Notes under the pieces: generated by a model
Seen by the model: only the letters and a program-made list of their open reading frames with translations
Told to the model about the DNA's origin: nothing
Databases searched by the model: none
Assembly: GCF_009938015.1 (NCBI RefSeq)
Contig: NZ_AP021884.1
Coordinates: 2,504,585-2,544,584, forward strand
Length of the DNA stretch: 40,000 nucleotides
DNA from: Sulfuriferula plumbiphila
GTDB taxonomy: Bacteria > Pseudomonadota > Gammaproteobacteria > Burkholderiales > Sulfuriferulaceae
Direction of reading: 5' to 3'
Shown: in pieces, positions 12,809 to 40,000 of the stretch
Layout of the letters: each line of letters starts with the position of its first letter
How positions within the stretch are numbered: position 1 is the first letter of the stretch
Made by a program: the position numbers and the translations under genes

Positions 12809-12969
12809 AATTAATTCTCTCCTTGAATTGCACAGACTCGGTTGGATTAGAGTGGCTCGCCAGCGCCGAGTCATTCGTTGGCTGACCACTTGTTTCAAGC
12901 CCTAACAGGCATTTCAAAATATCGAATATCCTGGACGCCTCCTTTGGGCTGGTTTGAAGACAATACTTC

Positions 12970-16885: not shown

Positions 16886-17777
16886 GCCGGCAGGCCTCTT
16901 CCAGACAGTCGGCAAAACCCAGATACAAGGGACTGTCAGCTCCCCGCATCGCTTGTAATAAAGCTTGTTGAACCTTGTATTTGACGTTACCGATAGCCAA
17001 AGGGCCAATACCCACGGCCCGGCCAGAGCCGGCAGAAAGATGTGCGGCATCGTCCATGACACCGATACCCGCCACACCGGCAGGTGGCACAGCATTGATG
17101 TCCGCTGCCACCAGCAGTTTGGAAGCCAAAGCAAGATGTTCAGCGGAGAGCACCTGCACCCCGGCCTTGGCGGTGGCGAGGATAATTTCTGCGTCAGCCA
17201 GTAACGCCACTTTACTTATCTCGGAATGGGTGTCAGCCGGGCGCACGACTATGCCGAAACGGGCATTGATGGTCTCGGTAACAGCCACAGCCCGAGCCAG
17301 GCCGTCATGGCTAGTGATGGTGACCTCGGCCCCCGCTTGCGCCGCCAACACCGCCACAATCTTGCCCACCGGGCCGGTACCTCCGAATACCACCACCTGG
17401 CGACCTGTCAAGCTTAAACCGTGAACCTTAGCCAAGGATTGTTCCACCTTGGCCAGCATGGCCGCTGCCGTAGTGTAGGCGCCGCTGGGGTCAGCGAAGA
17501 CGGAAACCTGGAAGGGCGGCACCATAGCCTTGCGAGCCGCATCCAGCATGTCAGTAGCGAGCACTGCATCGCGTCCGCCGATGAAAATGCCCGTATGCTT
17601 CACCCCCTTAGCCCCCCTGGAAAAGATGACATCCTGGGTAAAATTGGCTATCTCTTCCAAGCCTACGCCCGCATAGGGAATCACCGCATCCCAGCCGGCA
17701 TCGTAGGCCATGTTCACATCGAAGGGGCTGACACGTTCGCCCGGTGTGGCGAAGTGCAGTAAATAGGGTTTCTCCAT
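16875..17777 (-). CDS. mtdB: NAD(P)-dependent methylene-tetrahydromethanopterin dehydrogenase
   Basis: The product is 300 aa, MEKPYLLHFATPGERVSPFDVNMAYDAGWDAVIPY ... with the Rossmann loop VVFGGTGPVG. This matches the MtdA/MtdB family, and the context favours mtdB. Confidence 0.88.
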   Translation of the reverse strand: MEKPYLLHFATPGERVSPFDVNMAYDAGWDAVIPYAGVGLEEIANFTQDVIFSRGAKGVKHTGIFIGGRDAVLATDMLDAARKAMVPPFQVSVFADPSGAYTTAAAMLAKVEQSLAKVHGLSLTGRQVVVFGGTGPVGKIVAVLAAQAGAEVTITSHDGLARAVAVTETINARFGIVVRPADTHSEISKVALLADAEIILATAKAGVQVLSAEHLALASKLLVAADINAVPPAGVAGIGVMDDAAHLSAGSGRAVGIGPLAIGNVKYKVQQALLQAMRGADSPLYLGFADCLEEACRHAR

Positions 17778-21992: not shown

Positions 21993-22885
21993 TCCATAAC
22001 GGCGTCCTCATCGACGACACCTATGCCGAGGCCTTCGGCATGAAGGCCACCCGCATCATCATCACGGCGGACAACCTCACCTGGGCGAAAAACGCCGCCA
22101 ACGCCGCCTTCGGCTTCGCCACCTCGGTCATCGCCTGCGGTTGCGAGGCGGGCATCGAGCGGGAACTCGCGCCGGACGAGACACCGGATGGCCGACCCGG
22201 TGTGGCCGGCCTGCTGTTCGCGATGTCAACAAAAGAACTCGCCAAGCAGTTGGAGCGCCGTATTGGCCAAGGCGTGCTCACCTGCCCCAGTACCGCCGTG
22301 TTCGCCGGCTGCGACAGTGAGGAAAAACTTCCCCTGGGCAAGAACCTGCGCTATTTCGGGGACGGCTGGCAAATATCCAAGGTCATCGCCGGTCGCCGCT
22401 ACTGGCGCATCCCGGTGATGGACGGGGAATTCCTGGCCGAGGAAAGCACAGGCCTGCTGCGTTCCGTGGGCGGCGGCAACTTCTTGGTGCTGGCGCGTTC
22501 ACGTTGTCAGGCACTAAGCGCGTGCGAAGCGGCTGTGCTGGCCATCGCCAAGGTACCGGGTGTCATCACGCCCTTCCCCGGTGGCGTGGTTCGCTCCGGC
22601 TCAAAAATAGGTTCCAAGTACAAGGCTTTGCCCGCCTCCACCAACGATGCCTTCTGTCCCACCCTGCGTGGCGTCACGGAATCCGAACTGTCACCAGAGG
22701 TGGAGGCTGTGCTGGAAATCGTCATCGACGGGTTGTCCGATGCCGATATGCACGCCGCCATGAAAGCGGGCCTGGAGGCAATTTGCGAGATTGGCGCGGC
22801 GGGTGGCATCGTGCGCCTGTCCGCTGGCAACTATGGCGGCAAATTGGGGCAATTCCACTATCGTCTGCGGGAGATACTGGCATGA
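21989..22885 (+). CDS. fhcD: formylmethanofuran:tetrahydromethanopterin formyltransferase
   Basis: The ATG at 21989 sits in an ATGA overlap with fhcA. MIHNGVLIDDTYAEAFGMKATRIIITA is a typical Ftr/FhcD N-terminus. The product is 298 aa. Confidence 0.88.
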   Translation: MIHNGVLIDDTYAEAFGMKATRIIITADNLTWAKNAANAAFGFATSVIACGCEAGIERELAPDETPDGRPGVAGLLFAMSTKELAKQLERRIGQGVLTCPSTAVFAGCDSEEKLPLGKNLRYFGDGWQISKVIAGRRYWRIPVMDGEFLAEESTGLLRSVGGGNFLVLARSRCQALSACEAAVLAIAKVPGVITPFPGGVVRSGSKIGSKYKALPASTNDAFCPTLRGVTESELSPEVEAVLEIVIDGLSDADMHAAMKAGLEAICEIGAAGGIVRLSAGNYGGKLGQFHYRLREILA

Positions 22886-23688
22886 GCGCCCTGACCCTGA
22901 CCTTGCGTGCGGCGCCTCAAGGCCGGGTGGATATGAGCGGCGTTTTGCCGGCGGCCCTGGCAGGGCTTTCCGTCGCCGCGATCGCCGCCCTGCCTTTGAT
23001 CATGAATGGCCGACCGGTGGCTTTGGGCGAGCTGTTCGATGTGGCACCAGGAGAGGCGAACCGACTCGTGATCTGCACCGCCACCAATTGCCTGGATTAC
23101 CTGGGCAAGGGCATGACCGCCGGGACGATTACCGTGGAAGGTCCGGCCGGTCATTACACCGGCCAGAACCTGTGTGGCGGTAAACTCGTTGTCCGTGGCC
23201 ATGCCGGTCAATTCGCCGCCAGCGGCATGAAGGGGGGCCTGCTGCACATCGTCGGCAACGCTGGCGACTGGCTCGGTGCCGCGCTGATTGGCGACCGGGC
23301 CGGCATGGCCGGTGGCGTGGTAGCGGTGGAAGGCGATGTAGGTGACCGCGCCGGTGACAGGATGCGACGCGGTTTGATCCTGGTCCGTGGCCGCGCCGGT
23401 GACGCCTGCGCGACGCGGCTTCTGGCCGGCACCTTGGTTGTAGCCGGAGGGTGCGGCGACCAGCCCGGTTTCGGCCTGCGCCGTGGCAGCCTGATCCTCG
23501 GCCACGCCCCGGCTACCCTGCCGACGACATTCAACCACGCCGGCGTTGTGGATCTGCCCTATCTGGACCTGTTGCGTCGCCACGCCGCGGGCATCCTGCC
23601 CGGCGTGGTTCCCGCCCTGTCGCGCGTGCGTCGCTATGTGGGCGACCTGACTTGCGGCGGCAAGGGAGAAATCCTGGTGGCAACATGA
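22882..23688 (+). CDS. fhcC: formyltransferase/hydrolase complex subunit C (FwdC homologue, beta-helix G-rich repeats)
   Basis: The ATG at 22882 sits in an ATGA overlap. Repeated GxxGxxxG(A)xMxGGxxxVxGxAG segments (VVRGHAGQFAASGMKGGLLHIVGNAGDWLG ...) resemble FwdC/GltB-C-terminal-type repeats. Confidence 0.85.
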   Translation: MSALTLTLRAAPQGRVDMSGVLPAALAGLSVAAIAALPLIMNGRPVALGELFDVAPGEANRLVICTATNCLDYLGKGMTAGTITVEGPAGHYTGQNLCGGKLVVRGHAGQFAASGMKGGLLHIVGNAGDWLGAALIGDRAGMAGGVVAVEGDVGDRAGDRMRRGLILVRGRAGDACATRLLAGTLVVAGGCGDQPGFGLRRGSLILGHAPATLPTTFNHAGVVDLPYLDLLRRHAAGILPGVVPALSRVRRYVGDLTCGGKGEILVAT

Positions 23689-25049: not shown

Positions 25050-25217
25050 GTTTCCCGCCATAACGTACGAGTATCGCAAAGCGTAACCGAATCCACCCTT
25101 TCCTGTTTAATGTTTAACCTGATGTTCGCTTCCCTAGCCCATGCGGCCGAGGTCGAGGTAGAAAACGCCTGGATCCGTGCCCCTGAGTATTGCTCTTTTT
25201 TCTCAAGGCCGCTCTTA

Positions 25218-25970
25218 ATGATGATATGGCTTCTCTTGGTTTCCCTTGGCGCCGGCATTCTGATTGGCGCCGTTGGTATCGGAGGAATCCTTCTGATTCC
25301 CGCACTCAACGTTCTAGGGGGGCTAACAATCCACCAGGCAATGGCAACCGCCTTATTTACCTTTATTTTTACCGGTGCCATAGGCACCTTTTCGTTTCAG
25401 CGCCGCGGAAGTATCGACTGGAGCATTACTGCGCCGCTGTGCCTTGGCGCAGCAATTTTTGGATTTCTGGGCGCTTGGGCGAATGCGAAAATCGATGCGT
25501 ACATACTTTCCCTAATCCTGTCGTCAATTATCATTTTTGCCGGCATTTACACTATTTCCACTCACAGCCTGGCAAGACCGGCCATTCTCCAAGGCCGGCC
25601 GGGGCTGCAGCAGGCCTTCTTGGTTGGCATAGGTGCCGTTGTGGGTTTCGGCTCAGGCCTGACTGGGGTGGGGGGTCCTGCTTTATCTGTTCCCATGATG
25701 ATTTTGTTTGGGTTCTCCCCACTGACCACAATAGGCGCAAGCCAGGTAATTCAGATCCTCGCCGGAATCTCGGGAACGGCAGGGAATATGCAGTACGGCT
25801 CAATCAATTTCAATCTCGTAACCATCTTAACTATTTTCGAGGTCATAGGGGTCCAAATCGGCGTGCGGATCGTACACGCCGTGAACGCTCAATCTCTGCG
25901 CCGCTACGTAGGCGTACTGTGCATTCTTGTTGGCGCGGGACTCATGATGCGTGCATTAGGACTCTTTTAG
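25218..25970 (+). CDS. TauE/SafE-family (sulfite exporter-like) membrane protein
   Basis: The protein is polytopic and hydrophobic with two GxGGGxxxxP-type motifs (GAVGIGGILLIPAL, TGVGGPALSVPMMI). I placed the start at the ATG at 25218 (MMIWLLLV). The listed upstream 36 codons look like an unrelated gene remnant. Confidence 0.75.
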   Translation: MMIWLLLVSLGAGILIGAVGIGGILLIPALNVLGGLTIHQAMATALFTFIFTGAIGTFSFQRRGSIDWSITAPLCLGAAIFGFLGAWANAKIDAYILSLILSSIIIFAGIYTISTHSLARPAILQGRPGLQQAFLVGIGAVVGFGSGLTGVGGPALSVPMMILFGFSPLTTIGASQVIQILAGISGTAGNMQYGSINFNLVTILTIFEVIGVQIGVRIVHAVNAQSLRRYVGVLCILVGAGLMMRALGLF

Positions 25971-27215: not shown

Positions 27216-28076
27216 TTAAATCTCAAGCTTAAGCACCCGTTTTGCATTCTGATAGAGCACCTGGTCCAGAACTTCCTCTCTGAAGCCCAGCTCCCTGTAG
27301 TCCTCCAGTGATTGCCCCATTGCACGGAAAGGATATGAACTGCCGAACATCAGCTGGTCCTTCATGAAACCGTTTGCGGCCTCGACATAAAGGTTTCCGC
27401 CCGGAAGGAAGATGTACATGTCGGGTACGAGGTAAACGTTCTCATAGCGGAAGGCGACCCCTATTATTTCATTCACATACGGATAAAATCCGTGGTAGCA
27501 AACGATCGACAGATTTGGGAATGCGCGTGCAATCCGGCCCACTGGGGCGGGGTCGGTCAGTTCGAGACTGGGGGATGTCGGCCCCGACATGATGCAAACA
27601 GGAACGCCCAGCTGGTCACAGGCGTCGTAGATCGGATACAGCAGCGGATCGTCGGCCTTCATGGGAGTGCTGGCAAACCCGGGTTCCAGATTAATGCCCT
27701 TCAGCCCCAGTGTCTTGATAGCCCGCTCTACTTCGGTAGCCGAACCATTAATGCCCACTGAGCCAATACCAACGAGCTCCTTGTGTCCTCCGGTTATTTC
27801 ACTGATCTGATCGTTGGAATGTCTGATCCCTGGAGTGTCGCGGCCCACCACCACGGCTGCCGTTATACCGGTTTCACGGATCTCCTCCACAAATCCCGCA
27901 ACGGTCTTCGACCGGGTAAAGTGCTCATCATCTTTTGAGCCCACCCGCCGGTTTAGCCATTTAACAACCTCATATTCCTTCGTACCAGGCGTTGCGCCAT
28001 AAAAATCGTGCAGGAATGAAGGCCTGCTGCGCATATCTATTACTTTTTTTACTTTTCCTATTACTTTCTTTACCAT
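27216..28076 (-). CDS. amidohydrolase_2-family (ACMSD/LigW-like TIM-barrel) protein
   Basis: The C-terminal signatures LMFGSSYPF and LYQNAKRVL and an internal CYHGF fit the family. The ATG at 28076 has GGGAGA 7 nt upstream. The N-terminal metal motif is atypical (IDMRSRP). Confidence 0.72.
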   Translation of the reverse strand: MVKKVIGKVKKVIDMRSRPSFLHDFYGATPGTKEYEVVKWLNRRVGSKDDEHFTRSKTVAGFVEEIRETGITAAVVVGRDTPGIRHSNDQISEITGGHKELVGIGSVGINGSATEVERAIKTLGLKGINLEPGFASTPMKADDPLLYPIYDACDQLGVPVCIMSGPTSPSLELTDPAPVGRIARAFPNLSIVCYHGFYPYVNEIIGVAFRYENVYLVPDMYIFLPGGNLYVEAANGFMKDQLMFGSSYPFRAMGQSLEDYRELGFREEVLDQVLYQNAKRVLKLEI

Positions 28077-28406
28077 TTCCAAATCTCCCTATCTTAAAAA
28101 ATCCGGTTCAGTGTCATAACCAGTGTCAACTTGCTTCAATGGCAACGCGCGAGGCGCGATGTCTCTTACCTACTTCTACCCAACTTTTCTGGAAAAAATT
28201 ACTCAATGGCTGCTTAGTACTTAATACCTGTTTAATGCTGGCATGCAGGCTCCTCGTTCCTGCTGCGCTAATTGACGGAAACGTATTACCTCCCAATCAA
28301 TTGGAGTCGACATGACAACCGCAGCTCCCGTCAAGTCCAGGGCTTTGCGTTGACGCCACAGATTGGCGACATTAATCTGGTGGCGCATCTCTTCCCGGTC
28401 GTCTTG

Positions 28407-28622
28407 TTATGTTCTTGCGCCGATGGCGACATGGAAAATACCTGCACCAATGAACAGAATCATGCTTGCAGCCATGAACACATAGGCAATAACATTCCAC
28501 CGCCTGACACTGGGTTCCGATGCTGTGCCTCGTGCCTGACACCACGAAGCAAGCACAGCGCAAACCCCGCCAAGAACCGCGAGGATAACTATCGTTGTAC
28601 GGCTGAATAACCAATCCATCAT
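28407..28622 (-). CDS. small two-TM membrane protein (hypothetical)
   Basis: The product is 71 aa with two clear hydrophobic helices separated by a basic loop (QARGTASEPSVRRW). It starts 26 nt after the ABC ATPase stop on the same strand. The SD is weak. Confidence 0.35.
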   Translation of the reverse strand: MMDWLFSRTTIVILAVLGGVCAVLASWCQARGTASEPSVRRWNVIAYVFMAASMILFIGAGIFHVAIGART

Positions 28623-28647
28623 AGCGACTCAATATCACACTCTTTGC

Positions 28648-29562
28648 TTAACTACCCGGGCCAGTCTTGTCCGCGCGTCTTGAATAGGCTTCAACGAAAT
28701 CAGTTGCTGCCTTACTTCCGCCCGCAAACGATTTCATCGCTTCCTCGTGCAGCAGGGACAAGGCTTCCGTCTTCACTTCATTCGCACGCTTACTGTCAAA
28801 CACGAAAGCCAACCGTCTCGGCCGGGGCAAGTCGACTTCAATCGTAGCCCGGACCTGTCCGGGAATATTGGTCATGATCAGCAAGCGGTCAGCCAGGAAG
28901 ATCGCCTCATCAATATCCGTCGTAACAAAGAAATTGGTTCTCCGCGACTCCTCGTAGAGTCCTGCGTAATATTCCCACATCAACTCCTTGGACATACAAT
29001 CCAGGCCACGAAATGGTTCATCAAGAATCATGACTTCGGGGTCATTGATCATTGCACGGGCTAGTTCAGCACGGCGCTGCATGCCGCCAGAGAGCTGCGG
29101 CGGATATTTATTCCGGAACGCTGTTAAACCCACCTTTTCAAGCAGAAATTTGGCCAGGTCACGGGCTTGTTGCGTATCCTCGCCGCGCGCTCTGGGTCCA
29201 TACATTATGTTGTCATAGGTTGTCATCCACGGAAACAAGGCAGATTCCTGGAACACAACCAGGCGATCTCGATCAGGGCCGGTTATTGGCTTTCCATTTA
29301 TTTTAATACTGCCGGTCGTAGGCTTTTCAAACCCGGCCAGAAGTCGTATCAACGTACTTTTACCGCAGCCCGATGGGCCAATCATCACGGTAAGTTTGTT
29401 GCGCTCGATGGTAAATGAGCAGTCCTTGACTACTTCCTTCGTAAACAGCCCAGCACCATATGACTTGCTGACATTGCTTACCGTGATTTCACCGGCACTG
29501 ACCTGCGGCCTCAGGCTAGCCGATGAATCAGACAGATCATGGGAGATATTTGTCATATTCAT
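28648..29562 (-). CDS. ABC transporter ATP-binding protein (NitT/TauT-type importer)
   Basis: It has Walker A GPSGCGKST, the signature LSGGMQRR and Walker B VMILDEPF. The second ATG at 29556 has better SD spacing (AAGGA plus 7 nt). Confidence 0.9.
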   Translation of the reverse strand: MNMTNISHDLSDSSASLRPQVSAGEITVSNVSKSYGAGLFTKEVVKDCSFTIERNKLTVMIGPSGCGKSTLIRLLAGFEKPTTGSIKINGKPITGPDRDRLVVFQESALFPWMTTYDNIMYGPRARGEDTQQARDLAKFLLEKVGLTAFRNKYPPQLSGGMQRRAELARAMINDPEVMILDEPFRGLDCMSKELMWEYYAGLYEESRRTNFFVTTDIDEAIFLADRLLIMTNIPGQVRATIEVDLPRPRRLAFVFDSKRANEVKTEALSLLHEEAMKSFAGGSKAATDFVEAYSRRADKTGPGS

Positions 29563-29567
29563 ATCCT

Positions 29568-30392
29568 TTATCGTTTCTTCAACCAGGGTGTGACGAAGCC
29601 GCCGAGCGCACGCAAGGTCGCGCTACAAAGATAACCAGCAACGCCGATGCTGATCATGCCCACAACAATCTGTGCGTAGGAACCGCCCACATAGGAGTTC
29701 CAGATAAAAAAGCCGAGCCCACCGCCTGATCCGCCCGCCTGGCTGCCGCCACCCGAAATCATTTCCGCTGCGACCACCACCTCCCAGGTAATCCCCATGC
29801 CTACTGCAGCTCCGACGACAATCGAAGGTAGTGTTGCGGGAAAAACGACACGGCGGAAAATATCCCACTGCGAGGCTCCCATTGCTTGAGCCGATTGAAA
29901 ATACCGGATGTCGATCGATTTTGCGCCACCCAGCACATTGATCACGACAGTAAAAAACGCACCGAGAAAGGTAACAAAGGTGATGGACAATTCCTGCGTC
30001 GGCCAAAAGATGATCGATGCGGGGACCCAAGCCAGCGGCGGGATCGGACGCAATAGCTCAAAGGACGGGAAGGCCAGACTTCTAAACGTTTTGCTTACTG
30101 CCATGAGCAGGCCGAAGGGAATACCAATCAACATGGCAACAAGGAATCCCGTCAAAACCCGGATCAGGCTCATATACCAGCTTTGCCAATATCCCGAATC
30201 GCCAACCAGTCCGATCCATGCTTTGAGTACAGCGGTTGGAGCGGGCACCTGACCAATCCATGGCAGAGCAAAGCCTAGCCACTGCTTGGACTGCGAGCCC
30301 GCTTCCCATAGCACCAGAAACGCGACAATGCCGACAATTCCGCGCAGGGTAGAGCGGCTAAATAGTGTTTTTTTAAATCTGTTGAGGTTCAT
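29568..30392 (-). CDS. ABC transporter permease (BPD_transp_1, NitT/TauT-type)
   Basis: The product is a 274-aa polytopic protein. The EAA-like loop region reads QSAQAMGASQWDIFRRVVFPATLP. Confidence 0.85.
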   Translation of the reverse strand: MNLNRFKKTLFSRSTLRGIVGIVAFLVLWEAGSQSKQWLGFALPWIGQVPAPTAVLKAWIGLVGDSGYWQSWYMSLIRVLTGFLVAMLIGIPFGLLMAVSKTFRSLAFPSFELLRPIPPLAWVPASIIFWPTQELSITFVTFLGAFFTVVINVLGGAKSIDIRYFQSAQAMGASQWDIFRRVVFPATLPSIVVGAAVGMGITWEVVVAAEMISGGGSQAGGSGGGLGFFIWNSYVGGSYAQIVVGMISIGVAGYLCSATLRALGGFVTPWLKKR

Positions 30393-30398
30393 GTTCGC

Positions 30399-31262
30399 CT
30401 ACCCTTCTTTTTCGCCTGCTGCAAAAGACTTCTTGGCTTCTTCATGCACGAGCTCTATGACTTCATCCATCAGTTCGCGATACCGTGCGCTGGTCAGTAC
30501 GCTGTAATCGCGTGGATGAGGGATGTCGATGTCAAGAATCTTCTTTGGCTTGCAAGGCCGCGAAGACATGATGACTACTCGGTGGCCGAGAAAAATCGCT
30601 TCTTCCAAATCGTGGGTGATAAAGAAAATGGTGACCTTGTTCTTGTAGTAAATTTCCAGCAATGCCTCATGCATTACCGACTTGGTAAGCGAGTCGAGTG
30701 CGCGGTAAGGCTCATCGAACAACAGCACCTTGGGGTCGTTCATCAATGCCCGGACAATTTCCACCCGGCGGCGCAAACCGGAGGAAACTTCGCCCGGATA
30801 ATTGTTTTCGGTGCCACCCAGTCCGGCATCAGCCATCATGTTGCGGGCTTTTTCATAGATTTCTTTTTTGCTCATCTTGCCTTGCATCAGAGGGCCGAAA
30901 GCAATGTTTTCCAGGTTGGTTTTCCACGGGAACAGTGCGCCGTTCTGAAACACCACAATGCGGTCTGAGCCCGGCTCTGCCATGGGTTTATCCGGGCCAC
31001 ACAAGAGCTTGTCATCGAGGTAAATCTTGCCGGATGTAATACTGTGAAACCCGGCAATCGCATTCAACAAAGTGGTTTTCCCGCAACCGGATGGCCCTAC
31101 AATCATGCAGATTTCTCCTGCCGAGATATCCAGCGAACAATGATCCACCGCCATCACTGCGGCGCCTTCCGGGTCATAGATTTTGACGACATCCTCGATC
31201 CGGATTGCGCCCTGCGATATGGCTTTTTCCGACTTTGCGCTTGTTTCCAGTACATAGCTCAT
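30399..31262 (-). CDS. ABC transporter ATP-binding protein (second, distinct NBD)
   Basis: It has Walker A GPSGCGKTT, the signature VSSGLRRR and Walker B LLFDEPY. The ATG at 31262 overlaps the upstream stop by 1 nt (TGATG). Confidence 0.9.
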   Translation of the reverse strand: MSYVLETSAKSEKAISQGAIRIEDVVKIYDPEGAAVMAVDHCSLDISAGEICMIVGPSGCGKTTLLNAIAGFHSITSGKIYLDDKLLCGPDKPMAEPGSDRIVVFQNGALFPWKTNLENIAFGPLMQGKMSKKEIYEKARNMMADAGLGGTENNYPGEVSSGLRRRVEIVRALMNDPKVLLFDEPYRALDSLTKSVMHEALLEIYYKNKVTIFFITHDLEEAIFLGHRVVIMSSRPCKPKKILDIDIPHPRDYSVLTSARYRELMDEVIELVHEEAKKSFAAGEKEG

Positions 31263-32599
31263 CAACGGCCTCCCAAGGCAAGTTCACGTACCCGCCACTG
31301 CATCATGTAATCACCGATCATGCGCACCAGGGCGCTGGTGGAATAGCCAACCGCGCCAAGGGTGATCATGCCGATCACGATCGTCGGATAGCGAACCATC
31401 GTATAGGATGTATTGATCAGATAGCCAAGCCCGAACTGGCCGGAAACCATTTCTCCCGCCACCAGTGAAAACCAGGCGACACCGACGGATATTTGCAGGC
31501 CGGTAAAAATGAACGGCATGGCGCCCGGCACAATCACTTCCCTGAAGGATTGCCACCGACTCGCACCCAGGCATGAGGCCGCCCGAATATAGGACTCGTC
31601 GATAGAATCGACGCCGAGCATGGTATTCAGGGCGGTGGCGAAAAAAGAAGCGAGAAAAGTAAGAAAAATGACCGGGGTTTCGGAGCCGCTGAACATCAAG
31701 ATTGCCAATGGCACCCACGCGAGAACAGGGATGGGACGCAGGGTTTCAAAAAGAGGAAAGATGTATTCGCGAAACTTCTTGGACCAGCCCAAAAACAATC
31801 CGAGCGGCACACCTAAAAGTGTTGCCAGGAAAAACGCAATCCCCACACGGCGAACGCTGATCCAGATGTCATGGTAATACTCGGGGGTATAAAGCGACAC
31901 ACCATAGACTGGATTTTTACTGAAAAGCTCTTTTACAACCACGGTCAGTCCAGGCATATCTTCGAAGCGGGGCAATTTCCAGACCTCGACAGCGAAGTAC
32001 CAAAAGCCCAATAGAATCGCGAATCCGGTGATCATCAGATAAGGATCAGGGCTCTTCACCCACTGCGACACGCGAAACAGCGTCAAGGTCAAGCCGGTTG
32101 CCATGGTAGCTTGCAGCTGGGGCAGAGTCTGCTCTCCGGGGGGAAAATGACGCACCTGCGTAGCCACTGCTTCCGGCAGGGTAAATTCCTTGTTGATCAT
32201 GGTGGCAAAGCGGCTCATGACAACATCGCCAATAGAAGGGGACGCCTTGAAAAGATTGATCAGATCCTCGCCGTTAATCCGGATAAGCTCAGTCCGTTCC
32301 AGGCAGACGGTTTTCGCCAAACGTTTGCGCTGGCCTTCGAGCACGGCTGCCCATCCGAACACGCCGCCGCTGTATACGGTTTTATCCGGATGGATCGCAT
32401 GAGCGTCTATTCCGAGAGTGTGCTGCACGCTGCCTGAGGACACAACGTATATATCTTCAGCCTTATCACCTATTTGATAAAGTACATCGCCCCGCGCGTG
32501 TGACTCCCACTTAGCAAGCCCGGCGATAGCCAGGAGCATACTGTCCGGCACCATCTGGAACGGCATTGTGCGTTTCAACAAGGCTATGAGTTGTTCCAT
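31262..32599 (-). CDS. fusion protein: N-terminal cyclic-nucleotide-binding-like (CAP effector) domain plus ABC transporter permease
   Basis: The start at 32599 has GGAGGA 4 nt upstream. Residues about 1-135 show a cNMP-domain pattern (ARGDVLYQIGDKAEDIYVVSSGSV ... GGVFGWAAVLEGQRKRLAKTVCLERTELIRINGEDL). The C-terminal ~290 aa form a NitT/TauT-type permease (RAASCLGASRWQSFREVIVPGAMP). Confidence 0.8.
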   Translation of the reverse strand: MEQLIALLKRTMPFQMVPDSMLLAIAGLAKWESHARGDVLYQIGDKAEDIYVVSSGSVQHTLGIDAHAIHPDKTVYSGGVFGWAAVLEGQRKRLAKTVCLERTELIRINGEDLINLFKASPSIGDVVMSRFATMINKEFTLPEAVATQVRHFPPGEQTLPQLQATMATGLTLTLFRVSQWVKSPDPYLMITGFAILLGFWYFAVEVWKLPRFEDMPGLTVVVKELFSKNPVYGVSLYTPEYYHDIWISVRRVGIAFFLATLLGVPLGLFLGWSKKFREYIFPLFETLRPIPVLAWVPLAILMFSGSETPVIFLTFLASFFATALNTMLGVDSIDESYIRAASCLGASRWQSFREVIVPGAMPFIFTGLQISVGVAWFSLVAGEMVSGQFGLGYLINTSYTMVRYPTIVIGMITLGAVGYSTSALVRMIGDYMMQWRVRELALGGR

Positions 32600-32627
32600 T
32601 AATCCTCCGTGTGGCATATTTTTGGAT

Positions 32628-33743
32628 TCATTTAGGGGCTTTGGAAACGTCTTGTGCCTGGATGCTCCCCAGAGGTAAGCGAACACCGGCGTCCTTGGCA
32701 ATCTTGCGTGCGACCGAGTCATCCAGCACACCCGCAGGTGCCTGATCCACGTTGATTATTTTGTTCTTGTAAAGAAACTGGTAGATGCCGACGAGTTGAT
32801 TACGAATACGGTCGTCGAAGACAAACGGCTTTTCGTCCTTGATCGGACTGCCACCAGCGTATGCGGGTATCCTGCCGTATTCGGAGAACCAGGCCATCGG
32901 GACGGTAATCCCGTTGGTCTGCCCTTTGACGATCTCGGCAACCTTGACCCAGTTTTTCGGGTTCAGCACGAAGCGCTGCGCTTCCAGTTCGGTCTTCAAC
33001 CAGTCTTCGACGATATCCGGCCGCTGCTTCATGAAATCTTCGCGCATCGCGATAAAGCCGGAATCGGGCATGCCGAACGTATTCCCGGTGACTGCGTATT
33101 TCGCGATTCCCTCGCCAACCAGGTTGCCGATTCTCGATGCCGTGGGTTCCCAGAGCACAACGGCATCGAGTTTCTTCGCGCGCATGTTGGTGCTAAGAAC
33201 CTCGAGCGACTGGTTCATGATCGCCGCCGGCTTGATTTTTGATTTCTCTATAACGTAGCCCAGAAAGCGATCCGCGCAACTGCCTTTCGGTGTTGCAATG
33301 GTCTTGCCATTCAGCCACTTGACGGCTTCTTCGGGGGATTTGAAGTTCGGTGCGTCGGCGCGCACCATAATCACATTGCAACGCTGTCCCGGAGAAAATC
33401 CGGTGTTGGCCACCAGCTTGATTTTGGCCACATCCTGCTTGGTCGTTGCCACTACCGCAGGCATGTCGCCGAGATAACCAATTTGTTGCTTACCCGCGAG
33501 CATTTGATTGACGATGATCGAACCTTGCAGACCACCCTGGAATTGGACCTCGCTACCGGGGGGCAAATATTTCTTCCACAGTCCCAATGCGCGGATTACC
33601 GCTGCCGAGTACGAAACAGTGTCGTAGGGCTGGTAACCGACAGTCAGCTTCACTGGTTCGGCCGCGCGCACTGCAGTCAGCTGGACAACATTGAAAATTA
33701 TCAGTGCTAACGCAAGCATGGCGGTTTTAGCGTGTGATTTCAT
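32628..33743 (-). CDS. periplasmic substrate-binding protein (NMT1/THI5-like, NitT/TauT family), copy 1
   Basis: The ATG at 33743 has AAGGAG upstream. The signal peptide is MKSHAKTAMLALALIIFNVVQLTAVRA. The motif MLAGKQQIGYLGDMPAVVATTK is shared with copy 2. Confidence 0.85.
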   Translation of the reverse strand: MKSHAKTAMLALALIIFNVVQLTAVRAAEPVKLTVGYQPYDTVSYSAAVIRALGLWKKYLPPGSEVQFQGGLQGSIIVNQMLAGKQQIGYLGDMPAVVATTKQDVAKIKLVANTGFSPGQRCNVIMVRADAPNFKSPEEAVKWLNGKTIATPKGSCADRFLGYVIEKSKIKPAAIMNQSLEVLSTNMRAKKLDAVVLWEPTASRIGNLVGEGIAKYAVTGNTFGMPDSGFIAMREDFMKQRPDIVEDWLKTELEAQRFVLNPKNWVKVAEIVKGQTNGITVPMAWFSEYGRIPAYAGGSPIKDEKPFVFDDRIRNQLVGIYQFLYKNKIINVDQAPAGVLDDSVARKIAKDAGVRLPLGSIQAQDVSKAPK

Positions 33744-33865
33744 TACAGCTCCTTGATTATTATTATTAACTCGGCCATCAAATCTGGCGTGCATTTCGCC
33801 CTCAAACCCGCATGAATAAAGGGCTAGCTTAAGCGATTTGATGGTCGGCTCTATAGATATGTGAG

Positions 33866-35014
33866 CTACTTGCCTTTGTAGTCGGTTTCAGGCAACGCCT
33901 TAATCACGCCAACCGGGGATGTGAGTCCGCGCTCCTTCAATATTGCCTGGGTAAACTCCGGCATGACAGCGTCCGGCCGCAGCTTGTCCACATCGATACT
34001 CTTGATGGAGTGAAGAAACTTGGTCGCCCTCGTGATCAGGTCCGAAGCTTCCGGAGTGATTGTATAAGGCAGCACTAGCCGTACTGGCGTACCACCCTGA
34101 GCATCCGGAATCCTGCCGTACAGGGCACTCCACAGCTCCTTCTCTTTAAATCCGGTGGTTTGCGCCAACACCATGCGGATTACTGCATCGGCATTCTTCG
34201 GGTCCGCCATGTATTGCTCTGCATCCAGCTCTGCATTGAGCCACGCCTTGACCACATCCGGGCGCTGTTTGATGAGGTCGGCGCGCATCACCAGGAACGC
34301 GCCGTCGTGTTCATTCACCGCATTGCCGGACGCAATACGCTTGGCGAGACCTTCTGCCACCAGACGCGACGCGGTTGGCTCCCAGATGACCGCAGCATCG
34401 ATCTTGCCGACCCGAAAACCGCTGGTAATGACTTCAATGTTTTGATTCAGATAAGCCGAAGGCTTAACACCCATTTTCTCGAACACGGCTTGCGCGAAAC
34501 GGTCTGCGCAGGCGCCCTTGGGCACCGCCACCTGTTTTCCGTTCAGCCAATTGATGGCCTCTTTCTGATTGGCAAACTTCGGGGCGTCGGTTCTTGCGAG
34601 AAAGTTGTTGCATTGATCAACGCCCAAACCCACTGTCGCAACGATGCGCAAATCCGCGACATTCTCTTTGGTGGTAGAGACGATAGCCGGCATGTCTCCC
34701 ATGTAACCGATTTGCTGTTTGCCGGCGAGCATTGCATTGACGATAATGGCACCCTGCAAGCCGACCGCGAACTCCACGGTTGATCCCTTGGGCAAGTATT
34801 TTTCATAAAACTTCATGGGCCGCATCACCACACCGGACCAGGACTCCGTATAGTAAGGCTGGTAACCCACCACCAAATGGACTGGACTCCCCACCTTGCC
34901 GTAATCCAGTTCACCCGCGAACGCGGAAGACACGCTGCCCCCCGCGGTAAAGCCAAAAATCGTGGCCAAGACTACTAACGTGACACGTACCCATCGATTA
35001 ATAAAGCATGCCAT
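33866..35014 (-). CDS. periplasmic substrate-binding protein (NMT1/THI5-like, NitT/TauT family), copy 2 (paralogue)
   Basis: AGGAGGAG lies 6 nt upstream of the ATG. The signal peptide ends SSAFA. By eye roughly half of the residues are identical to copy 1 (VGYQPY, MLAGKQQIGYMGDMPA, WLNGK, PKGACADRF, WEPTASR). Confidence 0.85.
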   Translation of the reverse strand: MACFINRWVRVTLVVLATIFGFTAGGSVSSAFAGELDYGKVGSPVHLVVGYQPYYTESWSGVVMRPMKFYEKYLPKGSTVEFAVGLQGAIIVNAMLAGKQQIGYMGDMPAIVSTTKENVADLRIVATVGLGVDQCNNFLARTDAPKFANQKEAINWLNGKQVAVPKGACADRFAQAVFEKMGVKPSAYLNQNIEVITSGFRVGKIDAAVIWEPTASRLVAEGLAKRIASGNAVNEHDGAFLVMRADLIKQRPDVVKAWLNAELDAEQYMADPKNADAVIRMVLAQTTGFKEKELWSALYGRIPDAQGGTPVRLVLPYTITPEASDLITRATKFLHSIKSIDVDKLRPDAVMPEFTQAILKERGLTSPVGVIKALPETDYKGK

Positions 35015-35152
35015 GATGAACTCCTCCTATTGTTAAATACTTCCCAAATAGGGTCGTATTAAAAATACGCTTCTTTGTTAGTTCCCGTTCGTATCCAGAT
35101 GAGGTGGGAACTGACGTTGGCGTAAAATCTCCTTAGCAAGTTAAAGCTTGGG

Positions 35153-35878
35153 CTATTTTTCCCCCGGGGAGCCCAGATGCCGGGTGATCAGGGTCGAAAG
35201 CTTGCGCATGACGAGATACCCGGAAGCCGGATCAGATTCGAGGACTTTCAGGGTTTCCTCGCCGTTCAGTCGCAGCAGAGCCGACTTTTCCAGGCAGGTA
35301 GCTTTGGCAATGCGGCGGGGTTGATGCTCGAGCAGCGCCGCCCAGCCGAACACCTCGCCTTTGCGCAGAACAAAACCGGCGGGGCTGGTACCATCGCGGC
35401 CAATGAGAAATTCGACGCGGCCAGATTCAAGAATATAGAGATCGTCAGTCGGATCACCGATGTTGTAGAGGGTGCTGCCGCTTTCGTATTCTTCGCGACA
35501 TGCGAGCTGATCAAGCCTTTGCAGCGTATCGTCAGAAATGTCCATAAACAACTGCGCCGCTTTCAGCGCGCTGGATTGCAGCACGAATATCTCACCATCC
35601 TCGACCTTGACTTCGTATTTTTCCAGAGGGGCTTCGGCGAGACCAAGCGCTTTCCCGGTAGTAATATCCCACTGCCATAAATGCTGGTGACAGGTGAGCA
35701 CCGCGCCATCATAATATCCTTCGGCCAGACAGACTTCCTGGTGGGGGCAAATGCCTTGATAAGCGTAATAGCAGTCTCCGGCGTTGGCGATCAGGACTTT
35801 CAGCCCACCTTCAATGTCATAGTCCTTCATCCCGTTGGTAGGAATTTCGGCCGAATTGCATATGCGTATCTTGCTCAT
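35153..35878 (-). CDS. fusion protein: Rieske [2Fe-2S] ferredoxin plus C-terminal cyclic-nucleotide-binding-like (CAP effector) domain
   Basis: The Rieske motif is C44-P-H46 ... C63-H-Q-H66 (CxH-x16-CxxH) within about 100 aa, the size of a ferredoxin. Residues about 105-235 show the cNMP-domain pattern (SGSTLYNIGDPTDDLYILESGRV ... GEVFGWAALLEHQPRRIAKATCLEKSALLRLNGEETL). Confidence 0.8.
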   Translation of the reverse strand: MSKIRICNSAEIPTNGMKDYDIEGGLKVLIANAGDCYYAYQGICPHQEVCLAEGYYDGAVLTCHQHLWQWDITTGKALGLAEAPLEKYEVKVEDGEIFVLQSSALKAAQLFMDISDDTLQRLDQLACREEYESGSTLYNIGDPTDDLYILESGRVEFLIGRDGTSPAGFVLRKGEVFGWAALLEHQPRRIAKATCLEKSALLRLNGEETLKVLESDPASGYLVMRKLSTLITRHLGSPGEK

Positions 35879-35887
35879 ACCGCATTC

Positions 35888-36925
35888 CTAACTGAATTTG
35901 TCATAGCAAATATTATCGGTGGTCAATCTCGCCTGTAGCAGTATGCGGACGGCAGCATCCACCATCGGTGGTGGGCCGGCGAGATAGGCCCTGACGTTTT
36001 GATAGCGGTCTTGCATATGACGTCCCGCTACCTCGTGCACAAAACCCTTGTCAAACGCCAGTTGCGGATAGTCAGCCAGGGCGGAGGCGGGTGCATCCTC
36101 TCTTGACAGGGCGATGGTTATATTCAGTTTGTCGCCGCACTGGGCGCGTAACTGGGAGAATTCATGGAGAAAAAAGGCGTCCTTCATTGTTTGCACCCCG
36201 AAGAACACATCACCCTTATATTGAGTGAAATAGCCGTCCTGCGCAGCCCGCGACAGAATGGACATCATTCCGGCGATGCCGCTGCCACCGGCGATACAAA
36301 GAATGTTTTTGGCCAGGCTCGGATAAAAAGTCGCGCGCCCCAAAGGACCGAATAGTTCAACTTCCACGCCCTCGCACTGGTTATTGAACAGCCATTCGGA
36401 AATACCTCCTCCGGGCTTTTTCTTGACAACAAAGTTGAGCGTTTCCGCATGACGCTGATAATTCACCATGGACCAGCCGCGAAAGCCTGCCACTCCGGGC
36501 ACCTGGATCATCACAAACTGGCCGGCGTCAAACTCCATCGCCTGGTTCAGGTCGATCTGGAGATGAATCACATCAGGAGTCAAAAGCTTTACAGAGCTTA
36601 TACGCCCGTTTATTGAGGCAGGCACACAGGCACCTGCACCCATGGTCTGGACAAAGCTTGACACTTCAATTGAGACGTCAGTTTTAGCTGTACACTGACA
36701 CATCAGAAACTCGTCCTGACCTTTCAGATACTTGCGCCCTGGAGCCTCGGGCCAGGGATCAGAAATCTCCCCTGAGATCAACCGGGCTTTACATGTTCCA
36801 CACGTTCCACTACCACATTCATAAGGCAGGTCGACAGCGCTACTCAACCCGGCATAGAGTATTTTTTTGCCATCAGCAGCATCAAAATGATGTGCCCGGT
36901 TTCTGGCGTTGAGCTGGATTTTCAT
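35888..36925 (-). CDS. oxygenase reductase component: plant-type [2Fe-2S] ferredoxin domain plus FAD/NAD(P)-binding FNR-like domains
   Basis: The N-terminal motif is CGSGTCGTCKARL ... C. There follow an FNR-like RxWS-type FAD region (FRGWSMVN) and the NAD loop CIAGGSGIAGM. The product is 345 aa. Confidence 0.88.
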   Translation of the reverse strand: MKIQLNARNRAHHFDAADGKKILYAGLSSAVDLPYECGSGTCGTCKARLISGEISDPWPEAPGRKYLKGQDEFLMCQCTAKTDVSIEVSSFVQTMGAGACVPASINGRISSVKLLTPDVIHLQIDLNQAMEFDAGQFVMIQVPGVAGFRGWSMVNYQRHAETLNFVVKKKPGGGISEWLFNNQCEGVEVELFGPLGRATFYPSLAKNILCIAGGSGIAGMMSILSRAAQDGYFTQYKGDVFFGVQTMKDAFFLHEFSQLRAQCGDKLNITIALSREDAPASALADYPQLAFDKGFVHEVAGRHMQDRYQNVRAYLAGPPPMVDAAVRILLQARLTTDNICYDKFS

Positions 36926-36949
36926 GGTGTTGTTCGGCGCAGGGGCTTA

Positions 36950-37411
36950 TCAGAATGGAATGTGAGAGCCGAAACCGAACAGCCGCGTATCAAGGCGGAT
37001 ATTGCGATCCAGCAATTTCGGGCCGCCGTCCCCAAGTGCGATAGTGTCGTAAACTTTACCCACCACAAACAGCTCGGTTGCACCGCCGTCAAGCGATGTC
37101 TTGAAGACCTGCAGCGCGCTGATCACTTTGGCTTGTTGCCTGGCTTCGTCGTGGTCAACTATATACACCGTGGCGTGACGGCTGAGCGGCGAATGGTCGC
37201 TGTTGTGCTTGGGTAGATTATCGAATAACGTCTTCATCCCCGCCTTGTCATGCTCAAGCCAGGTCATTTCTTTGCGGATTTCCGGACTGTAGGCGGTAAT
37301 GGCATAGTGAAACGCCGGATCGCACAATTCCAGGTAACCCGCAAAGTCCTTGGCGTCCAATGCAAGGCAAGATCGGTAAATTAGCTCATTGATAGATTGT
37401 TTGGGTTCCAC
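36950..37411 (-). CDS. aromatic-ring-hydroxylating oxygenase beta (small) subunit, NTF2-like
   Basis: The product is 153 aa with a typical N-terminal helix (INELIYRSCLALDAKDFAGYLELC) and lies directly downstream of the alpha subunit. The GTG start has AGAGGA 5 nt upstream. Confidence 0.85.
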   Translation of the reverse strand: MEPKQSINELIYRSCLALDAKDFAGYLELCDPAFHYAITAYSPEIRKEMTWLEHDKAGMKTLFDNLPKHNSDHSPLSRHATVYIVDHDEARQQAKVISALQVFKTSLDGGATELFVVGKVYDTIALGDGGPKLLDRNIRLDTRLFGFGSHIPF

Positions 37412-37459
37412 GCTAATCCTCTATAAAGTAATGAAATGAAAGTTTGCGAATAGATGCAC

Positions 37460-38668
37460 TCACGCCGCAGCGGAGTCCTCTTTTTTAACATAGGGATCGG
37501 ATGCCATGCGCCCCATGCGCTTGCTCCACTCGGCGTAAAAATGCCGCATTCCAATCTCATCGTGTATCGTCGAATTTTCTTCACGACCATGAATAACCCA
37601 TTTGCTGTCGGTACGCTCACGCATGGCCAGTCCCTGCCCATGCACCGCCAATAGATCTTCATGCAGGTTGCGACCGAACGGCCCCCATATCTGGTTGTGA
37701 TCGCGGATCCGCTCGGCGCGCTGCTCGGGCGTGTCGCTCTTCAGCCCCAGCCCGCGGAACTCGATAAGCAGTTTGTTCGGTCCCAAAGGAATGGCCGTGT
37801 CCATACGCAACACCGAGGTGCGCAGGTTGTAAGTCATGCCGGGGAAAATATCGATCAGTATCCAGCCACCTGGCGCCAACCCCGGCCAACCCACACCGCG
37901 CTCCTTGCTGCCTTCGTAAGCATCGTATTTGATCGCCATTGAACCCACTGACGCGTGACCATTCGGATAACCTGTGTACTTGCGATCAAAGTAGCCTGGT
38001 TGGATCATGCCAGTGATGCGGTTGAAGTAGTGTACGTAGTCATGATAGAACTCGCTGTTGGTGTCATGCCACAGCTTGTAATTGGTGTTGACGATCGCCT
38101 TGTGATAATGGATGACCTCCAAAGGCATGCTGAGATTCTCGTCCAGCATCCCCATCGCATCGCCTATGTATTCCTCCAGCGTGCAGCTATCATCATCCAC
38201 ATTTACCCAGACGAAGCCGCCGTAGCCGATTGCGCTTTTGACTTCGCGCAGACCAGCGTCCTTGCAGCCGAAGCGTTCTTGATAGCCTTCCTTGCCGCGG
38301 GTAATATCTATGCAATCCCCTTTGGGATTAAATGACCAGGCATGAAAAATACAGGTGATGCGTTTGGCGTTGCCGACGGGATCGTAGAGGAGCGTGTTGC
38401 CGCGGTGCGGACAGATGTTGTAGAAGCTGCGCACTTTCATGTCTTCGCCGCGAATAACGAAGATTGGCTCGCCACCCGGATGGCTGAAAGTCCGGTAATC
38501 GTAGGCGTTCGGCAGTTCCGATTCGTGACAGGCGATAATCCAGCACTTATTAAAAATCTTTTCCTGTTCCTCCCGGAAAATCTGTTCGTCGGTATAAATC
38601 CCGGTATCTACAAAATGAGTAGGAGGAAATTTTGGTCTTTCTTTCCATTCAATTTCAGTGCGCGACAT
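37460..38668 (-). CDS. Rieske non-haem-iron oxygenase alpha (large) subunit
   Basis: The start at 38668 has AAGGAG 8 nt upstream. The Rieske motif is CPHRG-x16-CIFHAW. The catalytic-domain His-rich segment is NSEFYHDYVHYF. The product is 402 aa. Confidence 0.9.
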   Translation of the reverse strand: MSRTEIEWKERPKFPPTHFVDTGIYTDEQIFREEQEKIFNKCWIIACHESELPNAYDYRTFSHPGGEPIFVIRGEDMKVRSFYNICPHRGNTLLYDPVGNAKRITCIFHAWSFNPKGDCIDITRGKEGYQERFGCKDAGLREVKSAIGYGGFVWVNVDDDSCTLEEYIGDAMGMLDENLSMPLEVIHYHKAIVNTNYKLWHDTNSEFYHDYVHYFNRITGMIQPGYFDRKYTGYPNGHASVGSMAIKYDAYEGSKERGVGWPGLAPGGWILIDIFPGMTYNLRTSVLRMDTAIPLGPNKLLIEFRGLGLKSDTPEQRAERIRDHNQIWGPFGRNLHEDLLAVHGQGLAMRERTDSKWVIHGREENSTIHDEIGMRHFYAEWSKRMGRMASDPYVKKEDSAAA

Positions 38669-38750
38669 TCTTTGGCTCCTTGGATACGTTAAGGAAAAAA
38701 CATCATAGCTATCAATGAGAGACGAATAAGCGTCGTCTATGCAGGCATAA

Positions 38751-38766
38751 AGCATAGTCTGTGCCA
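38751..38766 (-). promoter_or_regulatory. candidate sigma-54 (-24/-12) promoter of the oxygenase/ABC operon
   Basis: The minus strand reads TGGCACAGACTATGCT. TGGCAC is perfect and the GG-N10-GC spacing is exact. The predicted TSS near 38740 lies about 70 nt upstream of the alpha-subunit ATG. Confidence 0.5.
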
Positions 38767-39698: not shown

Positions 39699-40000
39699 GA
39701 GATACTGCACTAGGGAAACTCTGCAAAACCCCCACTTCTGCGCCCCGCACCCGAGTCCATTGTGGCAATATTAAGCCCATGAAACAAACCACCCTGAATC
39801 TAGACCTCAGTCTCAAGCGCACGCGCAAGCGTGAATTTCTCGAGCAGATGGAACACGTCGTACCGTGGGCAGCGCTGGTCAAGCTGATTGCCCCGCACTA
39901 CCCCCAAGGCAACAACGGGCGTCCGCCGTTCCCGCTCGAAACCATGCTGCGCATCCACTTCATGCAGCAATGGTTCAGCCTGTCCGATCCGGGCATGGAA
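39699..40000 (+). mobile_element. IS5-family insertion sequence, left end and 5' part of the transposase (runs off the window)
   Basis: The ORF starting at the ATG at 39779 is open to the window end. Its product MKQTTLNLDLSLKRTRKREFLEQMEHVVPWAALVKLIAPHYPQGNNGRPPFPLETMLRIHFMQQWFSLSDPGME is a hallmark IS5-family transposase N-terminus. I only guessed the left boundary, from GAGATACTGC at 39699. Confidence 0.8.

Follow-up and report, generated by a model that had tools for sequence, protein, structure and literature searches.

What does a cyclic nucleotide-binding (CNB)-type domain do on the membrane subunit of an ATP-binding cassette (ABC) importer? The question is raised by a gene on the minus strand of a 40,000-nucleotide stretch of the Sulfuriferula plumbiphila genome (NZ_AP021884.1, positions 2,504,585 to 2,544,584; this whole stretch is called the window). 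The gene covers 31262..32599 (-) and encodes 445 amino acids plus a stop codon, with the 3′ end of its open reading frame (ORF) at 31262. Its ORF, its Pfam matches and its full-length homologs point to a permease of the MsmF type that bears a CNB-fold domain at its N-terminus, for which we use the name CNB-permease. The fusion of a CNB-fold domain to a permease is real and conserved, and we favor, with a probability of about 0.5, a role of the domain as a cytoplasmic sensor of a small pathway oxyanion, which would modulate the transport cycle.

Start codon, domain structure and conservation of the fusion

The CNB-permease starts with an ATG at 32599-32597, which a 4-nt spacer separates from a Shine-Dalgarno sequence that can be read directly in the DNA (GGAGG, 32604..32608 on the minus strand, i.e., from 32608 to 32604). 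Since 45 aligned homologs begin with the same M-[DE]-Q, the ATG at 32599, which had also been chosen in the initial annotation of the locus, is taken as the conserved start. A longer, GTG-initiated ORF from 32731 reaches into the 3′ end of the binding-protein gene upstream and is unsupported. Met166, downstream of the CNB segment, was considered as an internal start giving an unfused isoform and ruled out, because no Shine-Dalgarno sequence is found nearby and the residue is not conserved.

The fusion of a CAP-like domain to a permease, as initially proposed, was recovered with Pfam, which assigns PF00027 (cNMP_binding) to aa 33–119 (41.2 bits, E 1.7e-10; cut-off 27.5) and PF00528 (BPD_transp_1) to aa 263–427 (95 bits; cut-off 26.4). 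The best NCBIfam matches (SaoP, NtrB, TauC) stayed below threshold, and the names of homologs in databases are generic, either “ABC transporter permease subunit” or “cyclic nucleotide-binding domain-containing protein.” Both domains are present at full coverage in all of the best 120 protein clusters (72–95% identity), which means that at least 120 clusters carry the fusion. At the genome level, where one genome per species was used and the best 80 loci were compared, the full-length fusion was found in 60, e.g., in Thiobacillus denitrificans DSM 12475, T. thioparus DSM 505, Glaciimonas immobilis DSM 23240, Methylibium sp. Root1272, Imbroritus primus and Methyloversatilis sp. MC4-4. The ORF is uninterrupted in all 60 fused loci, independent isolates included; neither a stop codon nor a frameshift separates the two domains. 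Further, approximately 30 residues of aa 1–150 are invariant among 46 aligned homologs. As the fusion is full-length in many clusters and loci and its start is conserved, we can exclude both a wrong start and a join made in assembly.

The CNB-fold domain comprises aa 1–147 (32159..32599, -) and consists of a β-barrel and a C-helix (aa 121–146), as delimited using Pfam, AlphaFold2 and Foldseek. AlphaFold2 was run on the full protein together with 46 homologs; the overall confidence (predicted local distance difference test, pLDDT) was 53, with values below 50 in the permease core, and the model is usable for the CNB fold alone. For the CNB part, the pLDDT is about 80 and the secondary structure fits a CNB fold. 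Foldseek searches with this part returned the CNB domains of CNG channels, GlxR/CRP, PKG and MlotiK1 with E-values of 1e-8 to 1e-10. A variable linker follows at aa 148–168 (32096..32158, -), which is unconserved, differs in length in the alignment and has a pLDDT below 50. Thus, the linker has about 20 residues instead of the approximately 30 given originally, and the conserved amphipathic helix at aa 169–182 belongs to the core permease, since unfused orthologs start at query residues ~160–170. A helix-turn-helix as in CRP/FNR factors is not present; linker and permease come after the CNB domain.

The core NitT/TauT-type permease (aa 169–445; 31265..32095, -) was recognized by PF00528, by homology to CmpB/NrtB and by six hydrophobic segments in a hydropathy scan. 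Its EAA loop (aa 329–354, DESYIRAASCLGASRWQSFREVIVPG; 31538-31615, -) is seen in the sequence after the fourth segment, between helices 4 and 5. The nearest solved permeases are CmpB (9u9z, E 1.6e-32) and NrtB (8w9m, E 2.2e-30). With PF00528, the EAA loop, and flanking genes for SsuA-like binding proteins and two ABC_tran ATPases, the protein has the features of a type I NitT/TauT permease. Because the six segments have the EAA loop between helices 4 and 5, the N-terminal CNB domain is predicted to be cytoplasmic, following the standard topology of type I importers and the homology to CmpB/NrtB. The hidden Markov model and topology check proposed earlier thus gave matches for both domains and a probable cytoplasmic N-terminus. 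Across related loci, the CNB part is 38–82% identical, compared with 73–89% for the permease core.

A remodeled pocket in three classes of proteins

The description of the N-terminal segment as a cNMP-binding-like domain holds for the fold, which is seen with both Pfam and Foldseek, but not for a plain binder of cyclic nucleotides, as the canonical cassette Gly-Glu...Arg-[Ser/Thr]-Ala is not found. Alignment to CRP places the modified equivalent of the phosphate-binding cassette at aa 78–97 (GGVFGWAAVLEGQRKRLAKT; 32309..32368, -), including W83 (codon 32351-32353) and R93 (codon 32321-32323). In a pocket alignment of 62 permease-linked, 54 ferredoxin-linked and 12 free-standing CNB copies, F81-G82-W83-A84-A85 and R93-[LI]94-A95 are conserved at 92–100% in all three classes, and W83, R93 and A95 at 98–100%. 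Compared with E. coli CRP, W83 corresponds to Glu72, R93 to Arg82, L/I94 to Ser83 and A95 to Ala84. In CRP, Glu72 contacts the ribose 2′-OH and Arg82 the phosphate of the nucleotide. The motif of this narrow subfamily is FGWAA-x7-R-[LI]-A, with Glu changed to Trp in 100% of about 130 copies and Ser/Thr changed to Leu/Ile. A profile search of the PDB aligned the GW with the GE, and the R-l-A with the R-S-A, of PKG domains. With Trp in the position of the ribose-binding Glu and Leu/Ile in that of Ser/Thr, cyclic AMP (cAMP) or cyclic GMP (cGMP) is unlikely as a ligand.

When 1.84 billion representative sequences were searched, only 9 clusters were found below 1e-30, and 37 of the best 150 had an FGW-type motif; these are mostly fragments of the three CNB classes or small stand-alone proteins. 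Weak sequence matches of the module were obtained to models of FtrB, NtcA and CRP. The hydrophobic C-helix positions M128, F/L131, M/L134 and I135 are kept in all three classes. His60 is invariant in the permease class only, and C-helix residues differ between the classes.

The second class is represented in the window by a Rieske ferredoxin (35153..35878, -; PF00355), in which the ferredoxin part (aa 1–100) is followed by a paralogous CNB domain (aa 101–241; PF00027, 58 bits) with 38% identity to that of the permease. The Rieske [2Fe-2S] ligands are intact (CPH...CHQH), and this architecture is kept in at least 120 homologous clusters. Source annotations call such proteins “toluene monooxygenase system ferredoxin subunit” or “cyclic nucleotide-binding domain-containing protein” and nothing more. 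A ferredoxin that senses a ligand would be an unusual find by itself.

The third class is a free-standing protein of 152 aa with 311 relatives, the motif FGWAA...RIA and PF00027 only; a DNA-binding or other domain was not detected in it. Its gene is the third and last of an operon encoding a histidine kinase and a sigma-54 response regulator, which adjoins SulP, a molybdoenzyme complex, TauE and the oxygenase operon in more than 12 loci (for instance L090, 7489-10459, +; also L088, L092, L025, L029, L033, L038, L042, L043, L045, L054 and L058; related loci are numbered with L). The kinase/regulator operon with its free-standing CNB gene is not in the window. The idea that this protein is a partner of TauE was dropped, as its gene is constantly accompanied, in wider contexts, by those for the histidine kinase and the sigma-54 regulator. 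At L045 (2227-2871, +), there is also a free-standing, permease-type CNB protein of 214 aa (VFGWGALL...RLAKT...VLSRFATM) 5′ of the oxygenase gene; fused copies and the copy of the kinase operon are present at this locus too.

In some tandem variants of 616–625 aa (proteins P0009, P0010, P0014 and P0015), two CNB domains precede the membrane part. One tandem-CNB permease is encoded at L004 (10001-11851, on the same contig as L039), and the ferredoxin of L004 still has its own CNB domain.

The importer, its operon and the related loci

Which transporter carries this domain? The remaining 20 of the 80 loci are canonical ones from marine Gammaproteobacteria and from Alphaproteobacteria, with msmABCD and an unfused permease. 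Their identity to the window is 76–80% for the permease core (aa ~136–170 to 445), 71–87% for ATPase 1 and 57–69% for the binding protein, and the gene order of the transporter is the same. On account of this orthology and shared order, we conclude that the CNB-permease is the MsmF-type permease of a probable methanesulfonate-type (C1-sulfonate) ABC importer, the substrate being deduced from the comparison. In MsmEFGH of Methylosulfonomonas methylovora and Filomicrobium (PMC4433239), the order of binding protein, permease, ATPase and permease, plus a second ATPase, is alike, and those loci also have a neighborhood for handling sulfite and formaldehyde. In contrast, canonical MsmF has no N-terminal domain, and the window differs from canonical msm loci in the order alpha, beta, reductase, ferredoxin, in the CNB-fused ferredoxin and in a 17-aa spacer in the oxygenase alpha subunit.

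This spacer deserves attention, as CXH-X26-CXXH is the signature of MsmA (PMC4433239) and the window's own alpha subunit has CXH-X17-CXXH. Window-type loci belong mostly to Betaproteobacteria with the 17-aa spacer, and an alpha subunit of this type co-occurs with CNB fusions in approximately 50 loci. In Methylibium, Methyloversatilis and Thiobacillus, alpha subunits with the 17-aa spacer bear the name MsmA, an annotation in which methanesulfonate oxidation is not backed by data (PMC4433239). Mixed loci exist as well: a 26-aa-spacer MsmA is accompanied by both the CNB-permease and the CNB-ferredoxin at L030, L046 and L048, and by the CNB-permease only at L037 and L049. In a neighbor-joining tree of the permease core (no bootstrap), fused and unfused permeases interleave; six fused permeases fall within the canonical-msm clade, of which five have a 26-aa-spacer msmA as a neighbor and the sixth, L034, is on a contig without an oxygenase gene. 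This interleaving indicates that the CNB domain was gained, lost or exchanged among close orthologs. Since unfused permeases with 76–80% identity stand beside canonical msmABCD and mix with fused ones in the tree, the CNB domain is, judged by this comparison, an accessory module not needed for transport.

Neighboring genes in the related loci encode sulfite oxidase with cytochrome c, TauE, SulP, a DMSO-reductase-family complex, formate dehydrogenase, Fae, folate enzymes and a methanethiol-oxidase cluster; the methanethiol-oxidase and formate-dehydrogenase neighbors are found in Thiobacillus. Together with the genes in the window, this context supports a pathway that would yield sulfite and formaldehyde. 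An aromatic-acid degradation operon was also considered, as terephthalate and phenylpropionate dioxygenases are among the PDB matches of the alpha subunit; it was dropped for a C1-sulfonate pathway because of the C1/tetrahydromethanopterin and sulfite context, the orthology between this transporter and those linked to msm genes, and published work on MsmA-like proteins. SulP, a three-subunit DMSO-reductase-family complex and TauE are often located divergently upstream of the oxygenase operon (e.g., L001 1-4517, L003 1-4431, L088 11898-19292 and L090 10472-17743). The complex consists of a molybdopterin subunit of ~970 aa, an Fe-S subunit and a DmsC-like anchor. NCBIfam gives it no name, the best sub-threshold match being PhsA; we presume a resemblance to the cytoplasmic sulfite dehydrogenase SoeABC. 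Near-identical loci occur in metagenome-assembled genomes labeled Anaerolineales, Rhizobium, Chthonomonadales, Enterobacteriaceae or Polaribacter (L007, L008, L028, L044, L067). Binning errors or recent transfer seem to lie behind these labels, and the taxonomic range is to be taken broadly.

The minus-strand operon in the window spans 27216-38755, in the order oxygenase alpha subunit, beta subunit, reductase, CNB-ferredoxin, two SsuA-like binding proteins, CNB-permease, ATPase, permease, ATPase and Amidohydrolase_2. The MsmA-like Rieske oxygenase alpha subunit (37460..38755, -) was identified by its translation and the spacer survey; its probable start is M30 at 38668 and not the first ATG at 38755, as homologs of 399–402 aa begin there. 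It is followed by the beta subunit (36950..37411, -; PF00866) and a Fer2/FAD/NAD reductase (35888..36925, -; Pfam, with BenC/MmoC-like matches below cut-off). Downstream of the ferredoxin gene, periplasmic binding protein 1 (33866..35014, -; SsuA/NMT1-like by Pfam, NCBIfam and synteny) shares 57–79% identity with the corresponding proteins of related loci and 57–69% with those of canonical msm loci. Binding protein 2 (32628..33794, -), a paralog with 46% identity, lies between binding protein 1 and the CNB-permease. Nearly all related loci lack it and have one binding protein each; L027 has the second type too. ATPase 1 (30399..31265, -; 288 aa, PF00005) has a start that overlaps the permease stop codon (TGATG), and this overlap suggests translational coupling of the two genes. 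As noted in the initial annotation, Pfam detects no extra domain in the second permease (29568..30392, -; 274 aa, PF00528 only), in ATPase 1 or in ATPase 2 (28648..29562, -; 304 aa, PF00005).

An Amidohydrolase_2 protein (27216..28082, -; PF04909, synteny) closes the operon here and in the majority of loci with the 17-aa spacer; canonical msm loci lack it. No NCBIfam model matched it and its sole relative in the PDB is the uncharacterized BB4693 (3irs); as a speculation, it might act on a hydroxymethanesulfonate intermediate. A gene for a TauE/SafE sulfite exporter (25110..25970, +; PF01925), which recurs in related loci, adjoins the operon. At its other end, a pattern search 5′ of the oxygenase gene gave a sigma-54-like -24/-12 element (TGGCACAGACTATGC, TGGCAC-N5-ATGC; 38752..38766, -), which overlaps the first ATG of the long alpha ORF and lies upstream of the probable oxygenase start. 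The pattern is not enriched in the window (4 matches vs. 4.7 expected). Similar elements (TGGCACGGxCTATGCT) are located ~40–110 nt 5′ of the predicted oxygenase start in 21/44 related loci, so position and recurrence make the element upstream of the oxygenase gene suggestive.

Most of the window (1362-25049) is a methylotrophy island. It holds genes for tetrahydromethanopterin-dependent formaldehyde oxidation and genes of the tetrahydromethanopterin/methanofuran biosynthesis type, among them Fae (12296-12898), Mch (14741-15709), an MtdB-like dehydrogenase (16875-17777) and the formyltransferase/hydrolase complex genes (20328-23688). An IS5-family transposase gene, situated ~1 kb upstream of the oxygenase operon, is cut off by the window end and represented by its 5′ part (39779-40000, +). 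An Rfam scan of the window gave no RNA families.

Proposed role and competing explanations

How could the domain act? In the sensor role that we favor, the flexible linker would tether the CNB domain next to the two ATPases, from where it could gate the transport cycle allosterically, analogous to the trans- or auto-inhibition in MetNI, ModBC and CmpABCD. Candidate ligands are sulfite, as the product, or methanesulfonate, as the substrate, and not a nucleotide. An anionic ligand is argued for by the strict conservation of the cassette residues Arg and Ala, and the bulky Trp and Leu/Ile would shrink the nucleotide pocket; a function as a sensor is argued for by the free-standing copy in a signal-transduction operon. 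Given the toxicity of sulfite and formaldehyde, it would make physiological sense to adjust uptake and electron supply to what the downstream steps can process. The same sensor may sit on the Rieske ferredoxin feeding the oxygenase and, in related genomes, in the histidine kinase/sigma-54 operon, and one metabolite could thereby coordinate uptake, oxidation and transcription, limiting the build-up of toxic sulfite and formaldehyde. We propose only tentatively that the entire family defined by FGWAA-x7-R-[LI]-A binds a C1-sulfur oxyanion and that a single metabolite acts in a three-tier circuit of permease, ferredoxin and histidine kinase/sigma-54 partner. In such a circuit, the CNB copies might also communicate through CNB-CNB pairing.

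Several points weigh against a sensor of this kind. The PDB profile search returned no solved structure with the Trp variant, and the full-length AlphaFold model is poor (pLDDT 53) and uninformative on the docking position of the CNB domain. No co-varying docking site was seen, as the C-termini of the ATPases and of the second permease have the same length and similar sequence in fused and unfused loci. The substrate of the 17-aa-spacer oxygenase is unproven (PMC4433239). According to the differences in His60 and the C-helix, the three classes may differ in their exact ligand, and Trp plus Leu/Ile could even fill the pocket entirely, leaving a ligand-free interaction module.

This last thought leads to an explanation that we regard as rather doubtful, namely that ligand-free CNB domains pair via their C-helices and tie the importer to the ferredoxin and, through it, to the oxygenase or, in a variant covered by the same judgment, couple the importer to the small CNB protein, which would report flux to the two-component system as in a trigger-transporter. 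CRP-family domains do dimerize through the C-helix, and the C-helix face (M128, F/L131, M/L134, I135) is conserved in the three classes. There is one CNB domain per importer with partner domains on the ferredoxin and as a free protein, and the pocket could be occluded by Trp and Leu/Ile. Further, a plain ferredoxin is present besides the CNB-fused one at L030, L046, L048, L060 and L062-L064, where the CNB-fused copy could be non-catalytic. However, the invariant Arg and Ala of the cassette in about 130 copies are difficult to account for unless an anion is bound, the permease is fused but the ferredoxin CNB is missing at L035, L037 and L049 (L037 and L049 being short contigs), and at L004 a tandem-CNB permease coexists with a ferredoxin CNB.

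Genuine gating by cAMP or cGMP, linking sulfonate import to a global second messenger, is quite improbable. It would agree with a PF00027 score above the curated cut-off, a fold resembling cNMP-binding domains, the retained phosphate-binding Arg and next-but-one Ala, and a guanylate-cyclase-domain protein encoded ~5 kb away on one related contig (L092). Nevertheless, the Glu for the ribose 2′-OH is a Trp in every copy and the phosphate-contacting Ser/Thr is Leu/Ile, no cyclase is conserved among the related loci, and the module is restricted to one catabolic island instead of being spread over many systems. We consider it very improbable that the domain has no regulatory role at all, i.e., that it is a neutral or structural appendage aiding folding or membrane insertion, or a decaying relic. 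Close orthologs work without it, and it is less conserved than the permease core (see the identities above). On the other hand, its ORF is intact in all 60 fused loci and in at least 120 protein clusters, ~30 residues of the N-terminal part are invariant among 46 homologs, the pocket motif is maintained in three protein contexts, and the domain has been duplicated in tandem in some lineages. An annotation or assembly artefact, with the true start downstream or with two genes joined by a sequencing error, has a practically negligible chance given the conserved M-[DE]-Q start with its Shine-Dalgarno sequence, the poor credentials of Met166 and the intact frame in independent isolates.

A sensor role may be judged by comparison with known systems. 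CRP/FNR domains with ligands other than nucleotides include NtcA, which binds 2-oxoglutarate with the cassette Arg holding the carboxylate, CprK with chlorophenolacetate, and CooA with haem. The putative sensor resembles these effector domains in that a CNB fold would be repurposed for a metabolite; unlike them, it has no helix-turn-helix, and its output is a transporter, a ferredoxin or, in the free-standing form, nothing. The CNB-homology domains of KCNH channels are ligand-free, with a self-occluded pocket. They likewise have a non-canonical pocket on a membrane transport protein, but they are eukaryotic and C-terminal, whereas the strictly conserved cassette Arg argues for a ligand here. 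A cytoplasmic CNB fold is also shared by MlotiK1, CNG/HCN channels, SLC9C1, CNB fusions of the major facilitator superfamily (MFS; PMC10710835) and CNB proteins associated with bacteriocin ABC exporters (TIGR03896). These CNB domains have the canonical Gly-Glu...Arg-Ser/Thr-Ala and bind cAMP/cGMP, in contrast to Gly-Trp...Arg-Leu/Ile-Ala in the family described here.

Among ABC importers, MetNI (C2 domain), ModBC, MalK and OpuA (CBS) share the concept of a cytoplasmic ligand-binding domain that throttles transport, but their domains are on the ATPases, usually in two copies and of other folds. In the window, both ATPases consist of ABC_tran and the family's usual short tail. CmpABCD/NrtABCD belong to the same NitT/TauT family and are likewise heteromeric, with a single cytoplasmic small-anion sensor (here putative). 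In these systems, the regulatory domain is located on one ATPase, CmpC/NrtC, and locks the ATPases until the anion binds (CmpABCD; PMC13287603); it is a binding-protein-like domain at the ATPase C-terminus, unlike the CNB fold at the permease N-terminus. The asymmetric complex with a single sensor, as initially suggested, therefore holds with regard to the domain-free partner subunits. Such asymmetry was already known in the family through CmpC/NrtC (PMC13287603), tandem-CNB permeases exist, and with the ferredoxin and free-standing copies the permease domain would not be the sole sensor of the system. The view that a sensor on the transmembrane subunit is unusual agrees with a 2023 review of transporter regulation, in which regulators of ABC importers are ATPase-attached only and CNB fusions are given for MFS transporters only (PMC10710835). 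No description of a CNB domain fused to a type I ABC importer permease was found in the literature searched.

Post-translational control of ABC importers is known through domains on ATPases, and placing the sensor on the membrane subunit would solve the task with another architecture. Close orthologs with zero, one or two CNB copies form a natural control set for experiments. If the sensor role is true, a non-nucleotide, probably oxyanion-binding branch would be added to the CNB superfamily, and a single sensor module would serve uptake, electron transfer and transcription within one pathway. Further, the 17-aa-spacer “MsmA-like” oxygenases of Thiobacillus, Methylibium, Methyloversatilis and their relatives are linked here to a putative methanesulfonate-type importer and to genes for sulfite and formaldehyde detoxification. 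Their role in the turnover of methanesulfonate in soil and groundwater thus becomes testable in cultured strains.

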